IMG/VR virus record: IMGVR_UViG_3300010356_000998
Span: 1-64,000 of that record
DNA: 64,000 nucleotides
Direction: 5' to 3' (one strand)
DNA from: a virus
Taxonomy: Duplodnaviria; Caudoviricetes
Positions 6,801 through 55,337 of this stretch are shown piece after piece. Position 1 is the stretch's first letter; every line of letters starts with the position of its first letter. The notes under the pieces are model-generated. The model was not told where the DNA came from, ran no database searches, and was given only the letters and a program-made list of their open reading frames with translations. A program made the position numbers and the translations under genes.

Positions 6801-9800
6801 TGCTAATAAGGTTTTAGGTTCTAAAAATACTACTTTAAAAAATAATGTAGTAACTAATTTTAAAGATAATTTAGAAGATTTAGATAAAGCTTTAGAAATT
6901 GTAAATAGCGTTAAAGATTATAGTAAATCAGGAGAAGTGTTTATGTCTACACCTGAAGGCATGGATTCTAAAAATTATACTTATGTAACTAATTTAGAAT
7001 CTGATACATTATACGAAAAGCTTAAAGATTTTGATTTAAGTAATGACTACTTTAATGATTTTCATACAGCTTTAGATGAAGTAATTTCTAAAAATTATCA
7101 TGAAGTATCTGAAAAAGTTCTTGAAAAAACAGTACACTCTTCTCAAAAACAAGATGTAGATACAGCAGAAATTACAGAAGAACCAGCCGATTTAGATAAA
7201 ATTTTTGCACAAAAAGCTTTGCCTAAAACTCCTTTTGTTACTACAGGGGTGTCAGTAAAATATGATCAGCAAGGAAAAGATGTAATTAATAATGAAGGCT
7301 ATCCTGAATTAACACCTTTTGAAACACAAAAGAGATGGTTTAATACTATAGATAAGTATGCTGATACTTTACAAGATTATCAATTAGTACCAGTTACAGG
7401 AGCTACAAAAAATCCTGAATTATTAGCTGCAATACAATCTGGGTTTACAAATCCATCATTACTTAATGATACAGATGTATTTGTATTTTTAGTTGATAAA
7501 GATGGTAACTTTGTAAAAGAAAATGGTAAACATGTATTTACTTCTTTACGAAAACCATCTACAATGTTTCCAGAAAACGGAATGGCTAAAGTAGCACCAG
7601 ATTATACTATTAATTTATATTTACAATCATTAGGTGTTCCTGCAGTAGATTCATTTGAAAAAATTAAAAATCAAAAGATAGGTAACTTTGTACTTGGTAA
7701 AAAAGCTCGTGCTAAATTAAAAGATTTAATTGATTCTGATGCAACTGGTCAAACATTATTAGTATTAGCTAATGAGTATGCTAAAGAACAGTATGAAGCG
7801 TTTATTAATGAAATATTAAATAATACTGATTCTAATGTATCTTTGAAAATAGAAGGTGTTACTAAGGGGTATCAATTATATAGAGTTGATAAAAATGGTA
7901 AAAGAATTAAAAATAAAATTCAAGATGTATTTAATAATATTAGTTTTACAAACTTACCCGGTACTAATCAATTAAAAGGTGGTAAAATAGGAGTAGTTGT
8001 AAATGCAGATGTTAAAGTAGGTAATGAATTTTTGAATCTCCCTAAAGGTACTGTTTATTTTCAATTTGATAATAATGAAGTAATTACTTTAGATTCTAGA
8101 ACATTAAATGATAAAGAAGTTTTAACAGTTATTTATTTACTTTCTTTAGCTGATAATAATAAAGATTTAAATACTATTACAATACCTAGTAAAAATGGAT
8201 ATACTTTTAATGGAAAATCTATTGGTAAAAATATTCCAGTATTCTTTAAAAAATCTAAAACTAATGAACAAGCGTTTTCTTTATTAGAAACACTTATTAA
8301 TTATGGTTTAAGAAAAGATACTAAAAATAAAAAAGGAGAAATCTATATTCAATCTGGTAAAGTAGTGTTTACTGATTTTAATGGTAACTTAAATGAAATA
8401 CCTTTAAGTAAGTTAACAGAAGCTATTAAGAATAAGAATAGTTCTGAAATAAAACCTTTAGTTGACTTTTTAAAACAAAAAAGATTTAATGTACATAATC
8501 TGTTAATAAATAATAATCCAACTTTTATTTATCCCATTTATGAAAATGGTAAATTAACAGTTAATGAAAATAGATCTTATTTTGAATTTATGTTTAATGA
8601 AGTGTTGACTACAACAGCTATGAGTAAAGATGGTTATCCTAGAAGATTACAGCGTAATGTAATGTTTGATTCTAAGTTAACTAAAATGTCTAAAAAAGCT
8701 CCTGTTAAACATGCAGAGAATAAACCGGTTGCGTTAGAGACATCGGAAAAAGTAACTGAAGAATCTATAATAAATAGACAAATTTTAGGTTGGAAAACAC
8801 AAATAGAAAAATTATCTCCAAAAGAAATAAAAGATATTTTAAATCATCAATTAAACAATCTTACTGGGTTTGCTGAATTATTGATTAAAATAGGTATTCA
8901 ACCAACAGAAGAACACGTCAATACTATTTTTAATGCTGTTTATGATATTAAACCTAAAGTACCAGTTTTAGAAAATAAAACTAAATCAATAGATGATCAA
9001 ATAGCCGATCAAAAAGCTGATATAGAAAGAAGAAGAAAAGAATCTTTTGAACAAATAACTTCTCCAGAAGATTTCAAAAAATTAGGATTAGAACAAAATA
9101 AAGATGAACCACCTTATTCTACAACTTTAGATGCTGGAGATGAAAATTTAGAAGAAACTTTATTTGCAGATAGTAAAGAAAAACTTATTGATAAAATTAA
9201 TGCTAAATACGATGCTGAAATAGCTGCTTTACAAAATAAAACAGAAGAAATTTTAAAATATAAAAATATTGAGGTTATAGATACTGAAAATATTGTAAAC
9301 GCAGAAGGTAAAAAAGGGGCTGCTCAATTAGATAGAGATAATAATGTTATTAGAATTAATAGAAAAATTCTTAAAGTAAAGTTTGAAGAAAAAGCATGGA
9401 CTAAACCAAGAGACTTAATTGAAGTTATCCACGGTGAAAAAGTTACAAGTGCTGCTCAAGCTTTACCAGAAAATCAGTTTTCTAATTATCAAGAATTTGA
9501 AAATTTTGTTATGGAACATGAATATCAACACTCTATTTATACTAGAGAAGATTTTGATAAAGAGTTTCCTAATAAAACAAAAGGTGACTATGAATCTGAA
9601 ATTAACAATAGAGCTTTAAAAGAGTTGGGTTTATCTGAAAAAATAACTGAACAAGCTTCTTTAGAAAAACCTAAAAAATTATCAGCTAAAGAAAAACTAG
9701 ATAAGTTAAAAGGTGAAAAAAAATCTATTACTTTAAGTAAAACTCCAACAGCTGATAAAAGAATAGATAATGAATCGTTACTTGATTATTACATCAAAAA

Positions 9801-9828
9801 TAACATTGTACAAAAAAATTGTAAATGA
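3874..9828 (+). CDS. Giant virion/ejection protein (RNAP-associated) with a C-terminal zincin-like HExxH motif
   Basis: 1984 aa. The N-terminal part has Gly/Ala hydrophobic helices. The C-terminal part has MEHEYQH...YESEINNRA. Overlaps the RNAP start (ATGA). Confidence 0.65.
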   Translation: MPEITIPSTNTKFDPKVSLFEEANKLGVKPLVLADKKFSVDSQSNTLNSFSNIDASEYGKNTSLFGSDSEASAILNEQRAQNQGAGEQLLKGLGHLTSTVGTEILKVPGYIGGLVAAPAMEGSLIENIVDNAWVNAFEELDEGIKNQMPVYLTKEVQEGGIGRKLASSAWWATTGAEGIGFMLSMFAPGQALKALGVGAKLGKGIQAIAKESKLAKIITSEKFLKPTLNGLEMTSDGVSKIESTAAIALNTYIEAAAEGANTFDNVRKQYLQDNPDASDEEARKVASEAAANVVKANIGVLLLSNGLDELFLFKGFAGGAEKMAEKSVLGKIMKNGIIDVDEAGKLKRAGLKEFVKAAPLKIASNFAKEGLFEEGLQTKIQQHYEDVASGKTKASFTEDVLGNYFESLFNDPAMQEAVVLGGILGSGASMFSLASDIKQKNEMLYGREAYTPSAIGRFFGKKQKEATKGLVNIMNENFINSTRSIFDIAEKDADGNVIRENGKLKINETKLKDLVEQKEGLLLLNQLHNLAVLEGNKVEEEMLGDLLSFNYFMPFLQQDGGFELLNQHISNQLVDLMAKKTEDAGGGVPTEQDKEKLKTKLLSKAKEYKDIYDTVHKTTNTEFYIPVDNPQEYSGWKETVKNRKIQALVTHNSAQKSLNELNEKYPEGIDENTLPPDKFIEYKLTSKLKEEYQKRVNDAKETYTKLSSEKGLKEDYEKFNKQIQEDLKKTEEIVKEEAEKDEKIKNKLSSVNSLKAKASSVGYEENEMVLLEDDYGDRFKFNPSTGEVTNAFGKTIEDFEDMYVVPKNLVSKEQQDLEQLKTSMEVAEQYKEVLNTRQNYKEDFDVESVNNSIKDLINAVKTLYADRLNGKQGKTKKLFRLPKLDKGISELNKAIDTLNKRLEYLESLPLNDQTVKDKTIELLTKLVNLRNTLTNISKLSDISFGIAVKDTSLLNKLHQTFPNAPYLFNKIMDKKDANKVLGSKNTTLKNNVVTNFKDNLEDLDKALEIVNSVKDYSKSGEVFMSTPEGMDSKNYTYVTNLESDTLYEKLKDFDLSNDYFNDFHTALDEVISKNYHEVSEKVLEKTVHSSQKQDVDTAEITEEPADLDKIFAQKALPKTPFVTTGVSVKYDQQGKDVINNEGYPELTPFETQKRWFNTIDKYADTLQDYQLVPVTGATKNPELLAAIQSGFTNPSLLNDTDVFVFLVDKDGNFVKENGKHVFTSLRKPSTMFPENGMAKVAPDYTINLYLQSLGVPAVDSFEKIKNQKIGNFVLGKKARAKLKDLIDSDATGQTLLVLANEYAKEQYEAFINEILNNTDSNVSLKIEGVTKGYQLYRVDKNGKRIKNKIQDVFNNISFTNLPGTNQLKGGKIGVVVNADVKVGNEFLNLPKGTVYFQFDNNEVITLDSRTLNDKEVLTVIYLLSLADNNKDLNTITIPSKNGYTFNGKSIGKNIPVFFKKSKTNEQAFSLLETLINYGLRKDTKNKKGEIYIQSGKVVFTDFNGNLNEIPLSKLTEAIKNKNSSEIKPLVDFLKQKRFNVHNLLINNNPTFIYPIYENGKLTVNENRSYFEFMFNEVLTTTAMSKDGYPRRLQRNVMFDSKLTKMSKKAPVKHAENKPVALETSEKVTEESIINRQILGWKTQIEKLSPKEIKDILNHQLNNLTGFAELLIKIGIQPTEEHVNTIFNAVYDIKPKVPVLENKTKSIDDQIADQKADIERRRKESFEQITSPEDFKKLGLEQNKDEPPYSTTLDAGDENLEETLFADSKEKLIDKINAKYDAEIAALQNKTEEILKYKNIEVIDTENIVNAEGKKGAAQLDRDNNVIRINRKILKVKFEEKAWTKPRDLIEVIHGEKVTSAAQALPENQFSNYQEFENFVMEHEYQHSIYTREDFDKEFPNKTKGDYESEINNRALKELGLSEKITEQASLEKPKKLSAKEKLDKLKGEKKSITLSKTPTADKRIDNESLLDYYIKNNIVQKNCK

Positions 9829-47323: not shown

Positions 47324-48515
47324 AATTTTTTATAAAATCTTGCATTGTATTATAAGTTTTAAATTTTAAACCAGTGGCTTCTATAATTTTGTTTAACCAA
47401 GTTTCTTCTTGAGTACCTCTTGTACAAAATATAATTACATTACCTTTTTCTGGTCTATTTCTTAATCTACCTACTCTTTGAATAAAATCTTTTTCTACTC
47501 CATAGTAAGAATGAAGTATTACAGTATCTAAATTATCAAGATTAATTCCTTGCTTTAACATTTTAAAAGAACCTATTACGTTAATTTTACCTTCATTAAA
47601 ATCTTTAATGATTTGTAAATTAACATCTTTAATTCTTTTACTAGATACTGTTGGGCATATTTTAACTAATTCTGTAATACTATTAGCAAATACAATAGTT
47701 CTTTTTAAATCTATTGCTTTTAATAGAGATATTACAGATTCTGTTTTAGAAGGTAAATTATATAATATTTCATTACGTTTTCTCATCCAGTATTGTTTTA
47801 AAAAATCTGAATCAGAAAACATACATTTTATAAATCTTTGATGACAATAAGAATAATAATCTTTTTCAGTTTGATAAAAAGTTTTTTTAACACCTGTTGT
47901 TTTATCTTTATAATCAACGGGTATTATTTTCTTTTTATCATCTAGTTCTGTAATTATTACACTTATTTCAAGTTCTCTGGCAGTTTTATCTTCCTGTCCT
48001 TGTTTAATATTGTAAGAAAAACATATAGGCGCTATTTTATTTAATAATGTTATTTTAGTTATTTCTTCACCATCTATTTCAAAAGTACTTTTTTTATCTA
48101 TTGTAGCAGATAAGCCGATCAAATGATTAAATTTGTTATTTTCGTAATATTTGAAATATTGAGGTGTTAATGAATCATGTATTTCATCAGCAACTACCAT
48201 ATCATAAAAAGTACTTATCCATTTATAAGCACTTTGATAACATGCAAACGTTACTGAATGATTTGCTAAAATATCATAATTAAATACTTCTTTAAACTTA
48301 GCTATATCTTTTCTAATATCTAATTCTCTTAAATTAGTTTCAGCTAAAAATAAAATAGATTTTGGCTTTAGTTCTTTTATCATCATTAATGAAATAAAAG
48401 TTTTACCAATACCTGTAATAGCTTCTATAGTACCTCTTACATTACCATTAATTTTACTATTTAACAGTGATTGAACTGCCTTATTTTGTATATCATTTCT
48501 GTCAATACTAATCAA
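47307..48515 (-). CDS. SF2 (DExH) helicase
   Basis: TGIGKT, ADEIH, LSAT, QRVGR. Confidence 0.88.
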   Translation of the reverse strand: MISIDRNDIQNKAVQSLLNSKINGNVRGTIEAITGIGKTFISLMMIKELKPKSILFLAETNLRELDIRKDIAKFKEVFNYDILANHSVTFACYQSAYKWISTFYDMVVADEIHDSLTPQYFKYYENNKFNHLIGLSATIDKKSTFEIDGEEITKITLLNKIAPICFSYNIKQGQEDKTARELEISVIITELDDKKKIIPVDYKDKTTGVKKTFYQTEKDYYSYCHQRFIKCMFSDSDFLKQYWMRKRNEILYNLPSKTESVISLLKAIDLKRTIVFANSITELVKICPTVSSKRIKDVNLQIIKDFNEGKINVIGSFKMLKQGINLDNLDTVILHSYYGVEKDFIQRVGRLRNRPEKGNVIIFCTRGTQEETWLNKIIEATGLKFKTYNTMQDFIKNYVRKN

Positions 48516-48753
48516 TGTTTTTTATTACTCCAATAACGATCGCACGTTTGTGAAGTGGCAACTTAATATGTTGCGTTTCATTATTATCATTAAATCTTTT
48601 TACATTGACTAACGTAACATGATGTTTCATTGCAGGAATTCCTACATTTTCTTCCCAAAATACAAGAGGTAGATCTTTTAAATCTACCCCTTGATTTTTA
48701 ATATCTGTCAGTAATTTAAGTAATTCTTCAGCTGTAACCATAGTTATCCACAT
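48508..48753 (-). CDS. Hypothetical protein
   Basis: Small ORF between nrdJ and the helicase. Confidence 0.45.
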   Translation of the reverse strand: MWITMVTAEELLKLLTDIKNQGVDLKDLPLVFWEENVGIPAMKHHVTLVNVKRFNDNNETQHIKLPLHKRAIVIGVIKNID

Positions 48754-49401
48754 TTAGATGATCCACATTCTTTACATACAGCACACCCTTCTTCAAATAC
48801 AACCGATTTAGATCCACAGTCTAAGCATGATACTGTACTGTTTGTTCCATCAGGAATATATGCTTTAAGTGTTCTTGCTATAGCTTTTGTAAATGAATGT
48901 AACTCACCATCGGTTTTTTGTAATTGCTCAACAATAAAGCGTATTTCTGCGCCATGTCGTAAAGCAGTTGAAATAAGTCTGGTAATAGCTTCTTGTTCAT
49001 CAGTCATCATATAAGCTAATTGATGATATTTACTATTATCAATTATTACGTTATATTTTCCTTTACTTTTTTTAGAAATAATACCTTTACTATAACCTTC
49101 TAATATAAGTTCTGGTACAGCAAATACTTCGTAAGGCTTGTTATCTAATAAACCAACAATAACTGTAAAACCATTACCCTTTACTTTTAAGTGTTTAATA
49201 TCACATTCTAAATCAATAGGTCTTTTAGGTGCGTTTCTTTGTTCAAAAGTATTATTTTTAGTAGTATCTGTTACTAAAACACCTGTCCTACTACCATCTC
49301 TATATACAGTAACTCCTTTAAGATTTGCATCAAAAGCAGTCATATATATAATATCTACTTCTTCAGTAGAAATTTCATTTGGTAGATTAATTGTACTACT
49401 T
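48744..49401 (-). CDS. nrdJ: Class II (B12) ribonucleotide reductase, exon 3
   Basis: SSTINLP...KGVTVYRDGSR, followed by a C-terminal TSCPD-like region and Zn ribbon (CLDC...CKEC..SKC). Confidence 0.9.
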
Positions 49402-49477
49402 CATATTTGTCTCATATTTCTATGAGTATGGACTATATCATATTCCTTAATAAAGGAACTCGGACGCTGATACGGTA

Positions 49478-50308
49478 TTACTCATCACGCTTGATGAACC
49501 CGTTAGTCTCTGCACCTTCACTACAAGATCGTGTAGTGCTTGGCTCAATGTTAGCATGATTATTTGCTATTTCTCTGCATAGTTGTAAAAAGTCACTATT
49601 AGTCATATTGTTTTTCATTGTATTAACTCTTTTTGTGACCCACTGGACATTATCTTTAACATACCCTTTATCGGAATTTATTCTATCTAAAGAACACGTG
49701 TGCTTTACTCTATCTTCTTTATTATTAAATTTTGTATTCATTAATAATTCTCTTTGTGTATAAGCACATTTACCATTTTGATTATTCCACAATTCTTCCA
49801 AATATTCTGGTGTAAGATCAAATTCAAAACCTCTTAATTTAGCGTTTCTCTCAATAACTTTAAAATAAGTTAATGAAAGATTATTAGTTAACATTGTATT
49901 TCTTTTAGGTTTTTTTAAATTAGTATTAAAACAGTTATTACAATAAGAAAGTCCTTCCCCTTTACATTTTCTAGTTAATGTGGTATGACCTGTTCTGTAA
50001 ATATGGCCACAATCACATTGTACTTTATAAATAGTATTTCCTTTTTGAAGACCTTCACATTTCAATACTGTTAAATTTTGTACTTTGAATCCGTCAAAAT
50101 AAGTTTTTTTGTCTTTCCATCGCAATTTTCCAGAACACGAACGACATGATTTTGAAAACCCGTTTCGATTAATATAATGTTTTCCAAAAATATATTCTTT
50201 ATCACAAGTACATTTTAATACAAAATGATCTCTACCATTTTCTTTAAATGGTTCTGATACAACTGTCCAGTTGTTTACTTTACTTCCAATTTCTAAATTT
50301 CTTTGCAT
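49478..50308 (-). CDS. Intron-encoded HNH/His-Me-finger homing endonuclease
   Basis: Repeated CxC/CxxC DNA-binding units, then CAYT...SLDRINSDKGYVKDNVQWVTKRVNTMK. Confidence 0.85.
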   Translation of the reverse strand: MQRNLEIGSKVNNWTVVSEPFKENGRDHFVLKCTCDKEYIFGKHYINRNGFSKSCRSCSGKLRWKDKKTYFDGFKVQNLTVLKCEGLQKGNTIYKVQCDCGHIYRTGHTTLTRKCKGEGLSYCNNCFNTNLKKPKRNTMLTNNLSLTYFKVIERNAKLRGFEFDLTPEYLEELWNNQNGKCAYTQRELLMNTKFNNKEDRVKHTCSLDRINSDKGYVKDNVQWVTKRVNTMKNNMTNSDFLQLCREIANNHANIEPSTTRSCSEGAETNGFIKRDE

Positions 50309-50329
50309 ATTTTATGTATTTTTATTACA

Positions 50330-50358
50330 CAAAGATAATTAAAAATTGATTACTTCAA
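50330..50358 (-). promoter_or_regulatory. Bacteroidota-type sigma70 promoter for the intron endonuclease
   Basis: TTG-N18-TATCTTTG (TAnnTTTG -7 element) about 20 nt upstream of the endonuclease ATG. Confidence 0.55.
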
Positions 50359-50440
50359 CAGATAACTTACATTTAATTTTAGCCTTCTTTGAATTCATCC
50401 GATTTTCGATACACATTACTGTGTAAAGGCACAAGTTTTT

Positions 50441-51407
50441 ATGCTGTGAGTAGTATATTTTTGAATAATAGATTGAATAAATACTCTATTTTGCCAGTTA
50501 ATATCATTAGCTATTGAACCATACCAAGGAGACATTTTAAAACGTGCTTCTAATTCAGACTTTGGCATCATTTCTATAGAATACGATAATGGATCTGGAG
50601 CAGTTTTATTAATTTGAATTTGAAGCCAATCTTTAAATTTAGGATGAAGTACAGGATATTCCATCCAGTTATCTCCATTTTGATCTGTAAAATCTACTCT
50701 AACACCTGTTTCACCCGGATTAACTTTTTTACGACGCATGTAATATGGTGCAAATAAAGGTTCTAATCCAGAAGTTGTTTGTGTTAAAATACTTACAGAA
50801 CCAGTTGGAGCTACTGTAGACCATGATACATTACGACGTCCCCATTTTATCATTTTTAAAACTTTAAAATAAAAGTTTTCTACTAAAAATTGATAAAATT
50901 CATTACGTCCACTAATAATATCACCATCTATTTTAAATTCACTTTCAGCATCCCAATCTTTAAATGAACCCCTTAATATAGATAAATCAATACTACAATC
51001 TAGTTCTCCTGACATTTTAGTTTGCATCACTCTTTCAATAGTTTCCATAGCTTCTTTAGAATCATATTTTAATCCTAAAGCTGCTAACATATCACCTAAA
51101 GCAGTGAAACCACTACCCGTTCTTCTAGAACTTTCAGCAATATATCTTATATTTTGCCAAAGTTCTAATTCAGTACGTTTAACTGAATCATTTTCAGGAT
51201 CTTGATTGATTTTATCGATAATTCTATCAATGTGTTCTAATTCAAGATCAATTAAATTATCAGCTAATCGTTGTTGTTCATACGCCATTTTATAAAGACT
51301 TTCGTAATCTATTTGAGCATCTTTAGTAAATGGGTTCTTTACAAAGGAATAAAAATTAAGTGCTAATAAACGACAAGCATCATAAGCACTCATGAAAATT
51401 TCTCCAC
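50441..51407 (-). CDS. nrdJ: Class II ribonucleotide reductase, exon 2
   Basis: (C)GEIFMSAYDACRL, RRTGSG, RRN...TVAPTGS, TSGLEP. Confidence 0.9.
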
Positions 51408-51415
51408 CTTTTTAT

Positions 51416-52147
51416 CTACACTTTATTAATCATGTTTTTAAATTCATTATAATAATCTTTTTCTGTCCACAATTCATTCTTTTTAATTTTTTTAATGTTA
51501 GTACCATTATAATAAAAAATACCTTCTTGTGCAGGATACGAACAAATACACCTTATTGAAGAATTGTTAATACGACTTTTAAATTCTTCAACTGTAATTA
51601 ATTTAGGAAAGGTATCAATTGCAGTTTTTCCATAGTAATTATTCAAAAAACAATGATTAACATTTACTTTTTCAATATCTAACATTAAATTATGACAAAA
51701 TAAAAATACTTGTAAAGAATCTTCGTTTTTAAATAAATCTTTTTCTATTAATTCTAAAAATAAATTGTATACATCAAAATATGAATCATCAGAGTTATCA
51801 TTAGTATGTTTAGGACTTACAAAATAACCTTCATAAGCAAATCTAATAAACATACCTAATAAAGTTAATTCAATAATTTTTGAATCGTTTTTTACATGTA
51901 CTTCTATTCTTTCACAATCTTTATTATCAATAATTTCAGTTATACAATCTATGAAATTAGATTTAATAATATTTAAATATTTCATAAATTTATCATAATT
52001 TTCTATTTTAACATATTCTATTATAATTGCTACAGGATCTGCAGAAGGAACAGTATAATCATGAGCAAACGAATGAAAACAAGCTTCGTTGGTATGTGTG
52101 TTAATTTCGCCTTTTACTTTTTTAATAAAACTTGAATTGTATGACAT
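51416..52147 (-). CDS. Intron-borne hypothetical protein (~243 aa) with no recognisable endonuclease motif
   Basis: The ORF is looped out after P7/P9; the probable start is MSYNSS at 52147. Confidence 0.6.
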   Translation of the reverse strand: MSYNSSFIKKVKGEINTHTNEACFHSFAHDYTVPSADPVAIIIEYVKIENYDKFMKYLNIIKSNFIDCITEIIDNKDCERIEVHVKNDSKIIELTLLGMFIRFAYEGYFVSPKHTNDNSDDSYFDVYNLFLELIEKDLFKNEDSLQVFLFCHNLMLDIEKVNVNHCFLNNYYGKTAIDTFPKLITVEEFKSRINNSSIRCICSYPAQEGIFYYNGTNIKKIKKNELWTEKDYYNEFKNMINKV

Positions 52148-52184
52148 AATAACATGATTTGAGTTATTTGTAGTTTGGACTGTA

Positions 52185-52553
52185 TCATAAACTTGCATTA
52201 AGTTTTTCCTTGTCAGTCTCTCGCGGCTTATTGATTAAATTGTCTATGATTTCTTTTAAGATAGCTTTTTCGTCAATGTTAAAGCTATTAGTTAATGTAA
52301 GTATTCTATTTAGTTTATTTAACAATTTATATTCAATCTGTCCGACGGGATTGACCTCTCCAGGTGTTTCCCCGTTAGCCTTATTCAGACCCTCAATTTT
52401 TTGAGATTCGGAATTTTTGTTAAATGGATTATCTTGATATACAATATTTTCAAGTTTCGTAAGTCTATCATAAAGTTCTTGTATTTGTTTTTGAAAGAGT
52501 TTTTCATTTCTGTCAATTCTTTCAAATTGTTTAATATTAAATTGTTGACTCAT
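52185..52553 (-). CDS. Intron-borne 122-aa coiled-coil ORF overlapping the ribozyme core
   Basis: Open frame from after P2 through elements P, Q, R and P8. Confidence 0.5.
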   Translation of the reverse strand: MSQQFNIKQFERIDRNEKLFQKQIQELYDRLTKLENIVYQDNPFNKNSESQKIEGLNKANGETPGEVNPVGQIEYKLLNKLNRILTLTNSFNIDEKAILKEIIDNLINKPRETDKEKLNASL

Positions 52554-52606
52554 AATCTATTTAACTTTCCATAAGTATCACTACTTACAGCCGCATGGTA
52601 TGTTTT

Positions 52607-53486
52607 ACGGATTTGTGGTTACCCCTTTGTATTTTGGATAAACTGTATCAGGAGAATAATCCCAGTGTCTATCTACAAATAATATTCCGGGTTCTGCTGT
52701 ACTATGTGCAGCTTCTATCATCTTATCCCAAAGTTCTCGTGCTTTTATTTCTTTAGTAATAGATGGATTATCTGAATCGCAAGGCCATCTCAATGTATAA
52801 TTTGTATTTTGTTTAACAGCTTGCATAAAGTCATCTCTTACCATTACTGAAATATTAGCTCCAGTTACTTTAGTTAGATCTTTTTTAATAGTTATAAAAT
52901 GTTCAACATCAGGATGTCGAACGTCTATGCTTAACATTAAAGCACCTCTACGGCCATTTTGTGCTACTTCTCTTGTACTATTAGAAAATCTCTCCATAAA
53001 ACTAACTGCTCCTGTAGAAGTACCAGCAGCATTAGTTACAGGTGTATTATTTGGTCTCAATGTAGAAATATCAAGACCTACACCACCTCTTCTTTTCATT
53101 AACTGAACTAATTGCTCGTCTTTTTGAAGAATACCTCCATAAGAATCTTCAGGTTGCCCTACCACAAAACAGTTACTTAAAGATCCTATTTTTTTAGAAC
53201 CTAGCATTGACATTATAGATCCTTGTGGTACAACATACTTAAAGTGTTTAAACAAATCATAAATACGTTCTTCTGAAAGATATTCTCTTTCTTGTCCATA
53301 TTTACTTAATTCTGTTCTGTTTTCGGAGTTTTCTTCTTTTTCTTTGTAATTAGATTCAATTCTAGCAAATTCTTTTGCCATTCTTTTGTGCATGTCATCG
53401 GGAGTCGTTTCTCCTTCTTGAGCATACTTTCCTTGCCATACTGACATGGCTAATTCATCTTGATTAAAGTAATTGGATAATGACAT
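52607..53486 (-). CDS. nrdJ: Class II ribonucleotide reductase, exon 1
   Basis: SLSNCFV, RRGGVG, GRRGA, TGANISV, AEPG, TTNP. The three exons total 2505 nt = 834 aa. Confidence 0.92.
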
Positions 53487-53489
53487 ATA

Positions 53490-55337
53490 TTAAAATAAAG
53501 TAGGTTTTTTATCAAATAATGATAATTCTTCTTTTACATTTTTTATATAAAAATTGTAATTAATATCATAATTTAAAGCATTAGTATCTGTGATAGTATT
53601 CAATAGTGTTTGATACCATGCTTTACCTTTGATAGATGGGGCATTTAGATATTCACTTCTACCATCGTTATATAACTTTTTAAATACACTACCTTTATTA
53701 GAGATAATATATCTAATTGTTTTATGTAATGGTTTTTTATTTGCGTTCTTATCATATTCGTATAATTCAGCTCCTTGTCTTACTCTAATACCAAAACAAA
53801 AATCGAATATATTACTATGTTCTTTAATTGTTTTTTCTATTGGAGTGTTATATAAAAACCAGTTATAAACAGCTATTCTTTCAATTAATGATGATTTATT
53901 TTTATGTAAAGGAATATTTTCTATTTCATAAGCACCTTTACATTTAGTTTTACCATTTGTATAAACTGCGATATAGTTATTTACATCTCTAATCATCATT
54001 TTTGAATAGTATGCATATTCTAATTGAAGTTTTGTAATAGATTCCCATTCTTTACAAATATCATAATACATAGATTCATACTCTTTTTTTAATTTAAGAG
54101 TTAAACCATCTGTATTTATTTGAATAAGTGTACTATCTGGAATATTCATTAACTTTTCAGCTAACATTGTAAGCATAAGTTGACCATTTATAGTAGTTGT
54201 ATAAGTATATTTAGGATCATACAACCAACTAGTAGATTCATTACTTTTACCGTACACACTATTAGCAGCTTCTTTTAGTCCAGCAATAATAGCTTTATCC
54301 CCATCTGGTTTAGCTTTTTCAGCTAATCTTACAGCAACAATATCATTATTATAAATAGTAGCAAAATCTTCTCCTAAATGTTCAGGATATAGTTTATTTA
54401 CTACCGCAATACTTGGATATAGACTTGCTACATCAGCATCTATTATAATATAATCATCTTCTGCAGATATAATGATATTTTTTAAACTACCGTGAATACC
54501 ACCCAATCCATAATCAAATTGAAAATGTTTATAAATAGCGGATTTTGAAATAGAACTTTCAGAATTAATATTTAAATTTTTAAAATATTCTAATAATTCA
54601 TTAAATTCTTTTGATTCAAATTTAATGTAATCAAATATAATGTCTGATAATTTAATATTACTTCTATAAGTTCTTAAATCTCTTACATTCCATTTATTTA
54701 ATCCACATTTGTTAGAATATAATTCTAACATTAAATCACTTCCTATTTTTGAATTACTAGCATTTAAAAAATTTAATTTATATTTTTCTGTCAAGTTAAT
54801 TCTTAACTCTATTTCTTTTTTATTTTTATTAAATAAACTTTCAGTAGAATTAACGTCATTAATACAATATTGTATTATTTTATCAGCTTCTTCTCTATTA
54901 CTAATTGGTTTGAAAAAAGGCATGTCTTCTATGTTAGGCCAATCTATCATATACTGACACCATTTTAAACCAACTCTTCTGTTTTTATTATCTAAATGTA
55001 ATATTTTATAAATGTCAAGATTAAAAATATGAAAATCTTTTACTTTATAAGGTTTCCTATCTTGTTCTATTAAATATGTTTGAACAAAATTAAATATTTC
55101 TTCAGCTGATTTTTCAATACTCCAAATGTATTCTATAACTTGAGCATCAAAATCTAAATTATTAAATCCTCGCAATGCTTTTACTTCATTACGTAAAAAT
55201 GCCCATAGAGGCTCATAATCGTCTCTGTAAGGCGATATCTCAAACACTCTGTAATCTTCTTCGTCTTTTGCTTTAAATACAGCACAAAAGAAATTAGGTA
55301 GTGTTTCGAGGTCATACGTCCAAACTTTTTTAATCAT
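53490..55337 (-). CDS. polB: Family B DNA polymerase with 3'-5' exonuclease
   Basis: YDLET, FNNLDFD, YCIND, DVASLYP, KEAANSVYGK, NTDG. Confidence 0.92.
   Translation of the reverse strand: MIKKVWTYDLETLPNFFCAVFKAKDEEDYRVFEISPYRDDYEPLWAFLRNEVKALRGFNNLDFDAQVIEYIWSIEKSAEEIFNFVQTYLIEQDRKPYKVKDFHIFNLDIYKILHLDNKNRRVGLKWCQYMIDWPNIEDMPFFKPISNREEADKIIQYCINDVNSTESLFNKNKKEIELRINLTEKYKLNFLNASNSKIGSDLMLELYSNKCGLNKWNVRDLRTYRSNIKLSDIIFDYIKFESKEFNELLEYFKNLNINSESSISKSAIYKHFQFDYGLGGIHGSLKNIIISAEDDYIIIDADVASLYPSIAVVNKLYPEHLGEDFATIYNNDIVAVRLAEKAKPDGDKAIIAGLKEAANSVYGKSNESTSWLYDPKYTYTTTINGQLMLTMLAEKLMNIPDSTLIQINTDGLTLKLKKEYESMYYDICKEWESITKLQLEYAYYSKMMIRDVNNYIAVYTNGKTKCKGAYEIENIPLHKNKSSLIERIAVYNWFLYNTPIEKTIKEHSNIFDFCFGIRVRQGAELYEYDKNANKKPLHKTIRYIISNKGSVFKKLYNDGRSEYLNAPSIKGKAWYQTLLNTITDTNALNYDINYNFYIKNVKEELSLFDKKPTLF

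Follow-up and report, generated by a model that had tools for sequence, protein, structure and literature searches.

In a 64,000-nt stretch of the IMG/VR virus record IMGVR_UViG_3300010356_000998 (positions 1 to 64,000, referred to here as the window), comparative sequence analysis identifies positions 52606 to 51408 as a group I self-splicing intron (intron 1) within the nrdJ gene of a crAss-like phage, and its removal is predicted to join U and GU into the codon of the catalytic cysteine. Intron 1 contains two open reading frames (ORFs), one threaded through the ribozyme core (ORF1) and one located in the loop of P9 (ORF2), and we consider it probable that splicing and translation exclude each other on any single transcript. 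The source record comprises 108,742 nt and is rated 99% complete, and its DNA shows distant similarity to Bacteroides crAss-like phages.

The interrupted gene encodes a class II (B12-dependent) ribonucleotide reductase on the minus strand and is found in three pieces (53486-52605, 51393-50416 and 49343-48744) that match Pfam Ribonuc_red_lgC and TSCPD. Exon 1 ends with AAU CCG U, its last base being U52607, and the intron RNA, which is likewise minus strand, begins with AAAACAUACCAUGCGG and ends with AUAAAAAG (G51408). When the exons were joined by script (53486-52607, 51407-50441 and 49401-48744), the resulting 2505 nt encoded 834 aa with no internal stops; the first junction reads TTNPCGEIF, with the catalytic Cys codon split as U|GU. 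This spliced product could be aligned over residues 1-834 with the uninterrupted nrdJ of the related loci L003 and L004, at 62% identity. In most of the 67 related loci that were fetched using the exon-1 protein as a query, the junction-1 site is contiguous and exactly one codon separates the two query segments. Across the 5' splice site, U52607, A52606 and A52605 make up an in-frame UAA, which is the usual means by which group I introns exclude ribosomes arriving from the exon (PMC3984707, PMC3073962). Both this anatomy and the comparison with related loci indicate that intron 1 splices. We also considered a split-subunit reductase and an intein; both were rejected, since the division falls within the Cys codon, CGEIF lacks a start codon, and an in-frame stop stands at the very beginning of the insert.

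Relatives of the ribozyme were sought with a pattern of its R and S elements (GACTRACAAGGA...GAKAYAGTC), which returned 20 IMG/VR stretches, several of them compact introns without ORFs. RNAalifold recovered P4, P5, P6, P7, P8 and P9 from five compact relatives. A covariance model (R1), built solely from these five and with the window excluded, scored 40.6 bits (E = 3.8e-10) against positions 52390-52170 of the window. Across 25 family matches, 86.7% of the cells were paired, compared with 23 to 44% when the partners were slid, and 28 of the 29 pairs had changed on both sides, in an alignment that is fitted to the model and hence biased towards structure. Family-wide covariation backs P3 to P9 of the ribozyme. 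A first-pass annotation, made from the window's letters alone, had proposed a group I intron splitting the radical-forming Cys codon of nrdJ; the junction, the 834-aa frame and the R1 match all agree with that proposal, and its boundaries at 51408 and 52606 were exact.

All of the helices named in that annotation (P1, P10, P2, P4, P7 as GACUG/CAGUC, and P8) could be located in intron 1, as could omega-G, and P3, which the annotation had been unable to place, is now assigned to UUCC/GGAA (Table 1). P1 carries its splice-site wobble at U52607.G52594, and the internal guide covaries with the exon, being CCCU/GGGG in L070 and GCGU/GCGC in L066. P2.1 is formed by GUCAA and UUGAC. Among relatives, the outer pair of P3 covaries (CUCC or CUCU with GGAG), and P6 does so as well (CACGU/ACGUG, GCCGU/ACGGU). 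In P7, GACUG at 52218-52214 pairs with CAGUC at 52182-52178, and P8 spans 52205-52189. The proposed CUACA/UGUAG pairing that loops out the 243-aa ORF2 was also found, and this 5-bp helix is backed by P9a, a perfect 9-bp helix of AAUCAUGUU and AACAUGAUU. The combined duplex of P9 and P9a has an energy of -15.4 kcal/mol, which was equalled by 1.3% of shuffles. The pairing therefore makes ORF2 the loop that caps a P9-type arm, which would return the 3' splice site to the core.

ORF1 starts 10 nt past P2, and the placed helices bear out the claim that this 122-aa frame crosses P, Q, R and P8. Together, the two frames account for (369+732)/1199 or 92% of intron 1, so nearly all of it is indeed coding. 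The codon score of ORF1 is 0.265, compared with 0.016 +/- 0.088 for an open-frame null (p about 0.002), and its two variable segments stay open in only 0.8% and 1.7% of dinucleotide shuffles. We ranked the family members by their P4'-P7 spacing, excluding L088 (260 nt, without P4/P4' and likely a false positive of the pattern). All four introns with long P6 arms keep the arm in phase and free of stops (P4'-P7 spacing of 128 nt in the window, 137 in L067, 200 in L066 and 203 in L058), and their ATG-initiated ORFs, of 122, 172, 138 and 212 aa, respectively, read the core in one common frame (..NPV..; ..ETDKE..). Among the introns with short spacing (28 to 43 nt), only 2 of 14 are in phase and none of the 14 has a threaded ORF. 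Two relatives of ORF1 (P0004 and P0005) are about 90% identical to it and 155 to 156 aa long; the version in the window is the shortest, lacking 33 to 34 C-terminal residues, and the extra residues of the relatives probably derive from an insert in the P8 loop like that of L067. It looks as though the open frame is selected and a conserved protein is not: the peptide made from ORF1 would probably be no conserved enzyme, and the open frame is what is kept.

ORF2 would be 260 aa long if read from its first ATG (52198-51416), but the alignment with its relatives begins only at the ATG of 52147, for a length of 243 aa. Its codon score of 0.499 is gene-like, given scores of 0.593 +/- 0.112 for the phage's own genes and 0.048 +/- 0.059 for open random frames, and we therefore judge ORF2, by its sequence, to be a genuine gene; the family to which it belongs is very small and unannotated. 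Only seven relatives emerged when 1.84 billion representatives were searched exhaustively with phmmer (128 to 244 aa, 31 to 43% identity, all unannotated), and their longest contigs, where listed, range from less than 2 kb up to 94 kb; a profile search with the family added no further relatives. Across the family, R, D, N and H residues are invariant and one acidic residue is nearly so. In agreement with the earlier statement that neither ORF has a recognizable homing-endonuclease motif, profile searches in Pfam, PHROGs, NCBIfam, PADLOC and PDB gave, at the thresholds used, no homing-endonuclease match for ORF1 (LAGLIDADG, HNH, GIY-YIG, PD-(D/E)XK or His-Cys box) and no match of any kind for ORF2, and nuclease profiles matched none of the eight ORF2 family members. 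ORF2 also gave hhalign probabilities of at most 0.5% when compared with the ORFs of sister introns (222 and 235 aa in L066, 191 and 202 aa in L075), and a protein atlas returned only unnamed clusters for it (~0.9), recognition being under the useful level.

Fold comparison likewise assigned ORF2 to no known homing-endonuclease family. Its AlphaFold2 model (predicted local distance difference test [pLDDT] of 73.6, predicted template modeling [TM] score of 0.79) gave a best Foldseek E of 0.1, together with many weak LAGLIDADG hits (TM of 0.16 to 0.2, root mean square deviation of ~15 Å). The best VIA-align scores were those of tandem KH (Z of 6.0 to 6.2) and the GyrA tower (Z of ~5), both to the N-terminal alpha/beta domain, and all fold matches of ORF2 lie below a Z of 8, the stated noise range that is common for unmatched models. 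No nucleases were among the 50 VIA-align matches listed, which barely probed the C-terminal half. A LAGLIDADG assignment, suggested by the weak Foldseek hits and the motif LLGMxIRFAYEG, was rejected as unsupported: there were no profile matches, the helix lacks the beta-hairpins that should come after it in that fold, and no such chain appeared in the VIA-align lists. We infer two options for ORF2, a passenger gene or an unrecognized homing nuclease. One ORF2 relative (P0012, 39% identity) and one ORF1 relative (P0005, 91%) each have a longest contig of 94,352 nt; if both belonged to one intron, its ribozyme would be nearly identical to that of intron 1, with the P9 gene swapped or fast-diverged. 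Searches for the DNA of P0004 and P0005 and for the contexts of the ORF2 relatives, by pattern scans of viral and metagenome contigs and by blastn/tblastn of the phage collection, returned nothing.

The ribozyme family of intron 1 is found again in class II reductases of other phages, where it occupies the same Cys codon, as well as at other sites. The U|GU split is shared by introns of L066 (8566-10706), L087 and L081, and the intron of L070 lies 1 nt upstream of this site, its guide having changed from GCGG to GGGG to fit the exon. Three of these members are compact and devoid of ORFs (217 to 285 nt, minus strands; L087 10198-10440, L081 8626-8910 and L070 10793-11070), and their host gene is a monomeric class II reductase with the Cys codon in YNPCAEQ. 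At the other extreme, the L066 intron at 8566-10706 holds three different ORFs, in J3/4, P5 and P9.2. A homologous intron at a second nrdJ site of L066 (6463-8214; EVAQEGR|RGALML) carries in its 3' arm a 254-aa ORF (7433-8197) matching Peptidase_C26 (2e-20) and PHROG 7218 'glutamine amidotransferase' (2e-41), which stops 17 nt short of the 3' splice site, in addition to a 98-aa ORF and the core-threaded 138-aa ORF. Elsewhere in the family, L089 carries a GIY-YIG + NUMOD3 gene and L074 an HNH gene, and the ORFs of L076 and L082 at the place equivalent to that in L089 open with the same GIY...YIG motif (by motif only, with no profile scan).

The ribozyme is thus a constant chassis with exchangeable ORFs, ranging from none through GIY-YIG, HNH and unknown proteins to the glutamine-amidotransferase-like gene, and at least one of these, that of L066, is clearly a non-nuclease. 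The first-pass suggestion that the intron is a safe harbor for cargo gains indirect support in this respect for the family, in which ORFs are swapped or absent, without addressing the identity of ORF2; since a homologous intron carries an amidotransferase-like gene, a cargo role is plausible.

A second group I intron interrupts nrdJ 967 nt downstream of intron 1. This intron 2 (Table 1) holds a 276-aa ORF of an HNH-type endonuclease (50308-49478; PHROG endonuclease/HNH matches), the final ~100 nt of which overlap the ribozyme core, and it has its own P1 (GCAU/GUGC), a P2 of the same design as that of intron 1 (ACACA-GUAA-UGUGU) and the S element GAUAUAGUCC.

In the mechanism we favor, for which td/I-TevI serves as the model (PMC3073962), any ribosome that initiates at the AUG of ORF1 would melt the helices from P2.1 to P8, and folding would bury the ORF2 start beside P9a. 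Each transcript would then either fold and splice, yielding the reductase, or serve as a message for ORF1, and ORF2 would be translated too once the P7-P9 structure had been opened; the ORF1 peptide would probably be incidental. Such a putative translate-or-splice switch fits the anatomy of intron 1 and the in-phase rule of the long P6 arms. If ORF2 is not a nuclease, intron 1 would most likely spread by co-conversion with the HNH-bearing intron 2. More tentatively, we suggest an intron class common in crAss-like phages that would keep a frame deliberately open through the core, so that ribosome and ribozyme compete, and would use the loops of J3/4, P5, P6, P8 and P9 as slots for non-nuclease passengers. 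Were this the case, transcripts would be divided between repair of the host gene and expression of the intron genes, and ORF2 and the amidotransferase-like gene of L066 would be examples of passengers.

Several observations weigh against this overall reading of intron 1. With Rfam RF00028, neither the whole window nor the segments 48500-53600 and 52120-52640 gave a match, whether at the gathering score or at E <= 10, so the check with Infernal group I covariance models succeeded with R1 but failed with the Rfam model. The codon score of ORF1 is ~3 standard deviations under that of the phage's genes, and its P6-arm part is indistinguishable from an open random frame (p = 0.28). The threaded ORFs have in common only residues dictated by the RNA (ANG..NPVGQ, NKPR.TDKE), their intervening segments being unrelated, and the AlphaFold model of ORF1 has a pLDDT of 49, with the RNA-dictated parts lowest in confidence. 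Because the threaded ORFs are unrelated outside those residues, a shared protein function is unlikely, and the toggle is only one explanation of the open frame. We read the RF00028 miss as low sensitivity of that model to a core with inserts of at least 115 nt, because RF00028 does align in full to the compact L087 relative when the latter is searched alone (26.2 bits, E = 7.7e-5, under the gathering score of 50); at the gathering score, the Rfam group I search had no matches on 21 related loci either.

Less probably, intron 1 is an ordinary mobile intron. ORF2 would then be a homing endonuclease whose family is undescribed and whose target is intronless nrdJ, cut at NPCGE, and ORF1 would be a roleless by-product of extreme 'core creep', an idea that is already published (PMC3073962). 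Peripheral loops do hold GIY-YIG or HNH genes in relatives with the same ribozyme, and some of these genes overlap the core; both the invariant R, D, N and H with the near-invariant acidic residue and the weak likeness of the N-terminal domain of ORF2 to domains that contact nucleic acids (tandem KH, GyrA tower) would suit such an enzyme. However, the nuclease profiles (0/8 family members) and the fold matches, all of them within the noise range, speak against it, and core creep alone does not account for a phase that is kept, and stops that are absent, over 42 to 67 further codons in each of the long P6 arms. An improbable reading is that both ORFs are remnants in a fixed and immobile ribozyme, their frames open only through recent decay. 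The low codon score and largely disordered prediction of ORF1 would agree with decay, as would its shorter length relative to the 90%-identical P0004 and P0005; yet ORF2 scores like a gene and its family is conserved at 31 to 43% identity over the full length, and the threaded frame has been retained in four independent long-P6 introns. Organellar group I introns are known to encode maturases, and the model of ORF1 is helical and in places basic, but we regard it as very improbable that ORF1 encodes a maturase or RNA chaperone whose binding to its own intron would aid folding: it matches neither LAGLIDADG nor any other family, related threaded ORFs share no sequence beyond the RNA-imposed residues, and compact relatives of the same ribozyme lack such an ORF altogether. 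The idea of a new nuclease or maturase family, raised in the first-pass annotation, is accordingly unlikely for ORF1, in view of its purely RNA-dictated conservation and its pLDDT of 49.

Table 1. Features of the interrupted nrdJ gene and of intron 1 (window coordinates unless a related locus is named)
Feature	Coordinates	Strand	Description and evidence
nrdJ exon 1	52607..53486	-	293 codons + T of Cys codon, ending ...TTNP + U; Ribonuc_red_lgC E 1.6e-37; tblastn to 67 related loci
Group I intron 1	51408..52606	-	1199 nt; omega-G at 51408; NPCGE and 834-aa frame restored; model R1 match
P1 + P10 internal guide	52591..52598	-	GCGG 52594-52591 with exon CCGU 52610-52607; CCAU 52598-52595 with exon-2 GUGG 51407-51404
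P2 hairpin	52571..52588	-	GUGA (GNRA) loop; fold; like design in L066, L067 and intron 2
ORF1, 122 aa	52185..52553	-	Crosses P2.1, P3, J3/4 hairpin, P4, P5, P6 + arm, P7, P3', P8; UGA stop in J8/7
P3 5' strand UUCC	52410..52413	-	Partner GGAA 52209-52206
Extra J3/4 hairpin	52389..52406	-	Present in L066, L067, L058; absent from compact relatives
P4-P5-P4'	52345..52375	-	ACGGG ... ACCU-GGAG-AGGU ... CCCGU; R1 alignment; P4 and P5 covariation
P6 + 115-nt extended arm	52224..52344	-	CGG/CCG; arm structured and coding, fold z = -2.67
P7 5'-J7/3-P3'-P8-J8/7-P7 3' (R + S elements)	52178..52218	-	GACUG, GGAA, AAACUU/AAGUUU, CAGUC
P9 + P9a 5' strands	52151..52173	-	CUACA 52173-52169; AAUCAUGUU 52159-52151; P9a ends 3 nt ahead of ORF2 AUG
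ORF2, 243 aa	51416..52147	-	P9 terminal loop; UAG stop within P9 3' strand; start from family alignment and tblastn
P9 + P9a 3' strands	51416..51436	-	AACAUGAUU 51436-51428; UGUAG 51420-51416; then AUAAAAAG and 3' splice site
nrdJ exon 2	50441..51407	-	Begins GU GGA GAA = (C)GE; Pfam, related loci, spliced-frame alignment
Group I intron 2	49402..50440	-	1039 nt; R1 match 49575-49408, E 0.013; junction HSI|SSTINLP
nrdJ exon 3	48744..49401	-	Pfam, related loci, spliced-frame alignment
IVSP/SIVP small-protein family	L066 6591-6887; L075 9021-9320; L067 7170-7574, 7562-7930; L058 6116-6517		

Other insertions were observed in the nrdJ genes of related phages. Inteins (C...HN|C, about 430 to 1130 nt) occupy the NP|C Cys position in L005, L014, L027, L039 and L065; judged from these sequences, RNA- and protein-splicing elements share one active-site position in nrdJ. 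Interruptions are also seen at further sites (exon-1 residue 180/181, exon-2 residue ~203 and residues ~156-168, the latter with an HNH gene), namely in L014-L017, L019-L020, L056-L058, L063, L065-L067 and L069, with up to four inserts per gene (L069). A small unannotated protein family (98 to 134 aa, ending in ...IVSP or ...SIVP...) recurs within the introns described here, sometimes in tandem; its members had no matches in Pfam and PHROGs, nor in NCBIfam and PADLOC, the latter two having been run on two members only. The crAss-like phage contig L066 also contains a transfer-messenger RNA gene (420-754; Rfam RF00023, 68.8 bits), ~5 kb upstream of nrdJ.

Group I introns in phage reductase genes, active-site codons shared by introns and inteins, overlap of ORFs with the core and the richness of crAss-like phages in introns are all already known (PMC7886860, PMC3073962, PMC3984707). 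The present introns stand apart in how far and how regularly the frame is threaded, in the lack of a recognizable nuclease in intron 1, and in the non-nuclease cargo of a sister intron, features for which a limited full-text literature search found no describing paper. The usual view of a phage group I intron is that of a ribozyme and a homing endonuclease, which overlap only briefly, if at all. If ORF1 is translated, intron 1 would be a natural RNA that chooses between ribozyme and message inside the active-site codon of an essential enzyme, and the long-discussed conflict of translation and splicing would become directly testable. Intron surveys that rely on endonuclease domains or on the Rfam model will miss this class.

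Introns of the T4 nrdD (sunY) type have a compact 5' core followed by an ORF, which is placed ahead of the 3' splice site. Intron 1 resembles them in its compact 5' core, its ORF in a P9-region loop and the long-range helix that returns the 3' splice site; sunY, however, carries I-TevII, a known nuclease of the GIY-YIG type, whereas ORF2 belongs to no known family. That a group I intron can house a gene other than an endonuclease has a precedent in rps3, which resides in the rnl group I intron of fungal mitochondria. However, rps3 is a host gene of the organelle rather than an accessory gene of a phage, and no ORF crosses the core there, in contrast to the phage intron with its core-threaded ORF. 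The inteins at the radical Cys of reductases have the identical insertion point as intron 1, but they are translated in frame and spliced as protein, whereas the stops and ribozyme of intron 1 indicate RNA splicing.

Intron 1 also belongs to the same phage group as the introns of Yutin et al. (2021; PMC7886860). In the intron and intein passages of that paper, the group I introns of crAss-like phages are found via endonuclease domains, and an intron without such a domain would therefore have been missed; the same passages contain neither threaded ORFs nor non-nuclease cargo. The closest comparison is with T4 td/I-TevI, for which the overlap of ORF and core ('core creep') and the conflict of translation with splicing are established (Edgell, Chalamcharla and Belfort 2011, PMC3073962; Gibb and Edgell 2010, cited therein). 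Both are phage introns in a gene of nucleotide metabolism whose 5' splice site carries an in-frame stop; in both, an ORF has nucleotides in common with the core, and RNA structure hides an ORF start (by prediction in intron 1). The overlap in td is confined to the final 20 nt of the GIY-YIG gene in the P6 loop, which fall in P6a, P6.0 and P7, and translation into the core interferes with splicing (PMC3073962); in intron 1, by contrast, the 369 nt of ORF1 cover P2.1 to P8 and thus essentially the whole core, with no recognizable endonuclease. Longer overlaps are those of Bacillus thuringiensis nrdF (56 nt) and Synechococcus lividus LSU (81 nt over P6/P7/P3/P8/P9) (Table 1 of PMC3073962), in which the ORFs run into P6, P7, P3 and P8 as in intron 1. 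While those overlaps are formed by the ends of known nuclease genes, that of intron 1 is several-fold longer, and every long-P6 member of its family is in phase.

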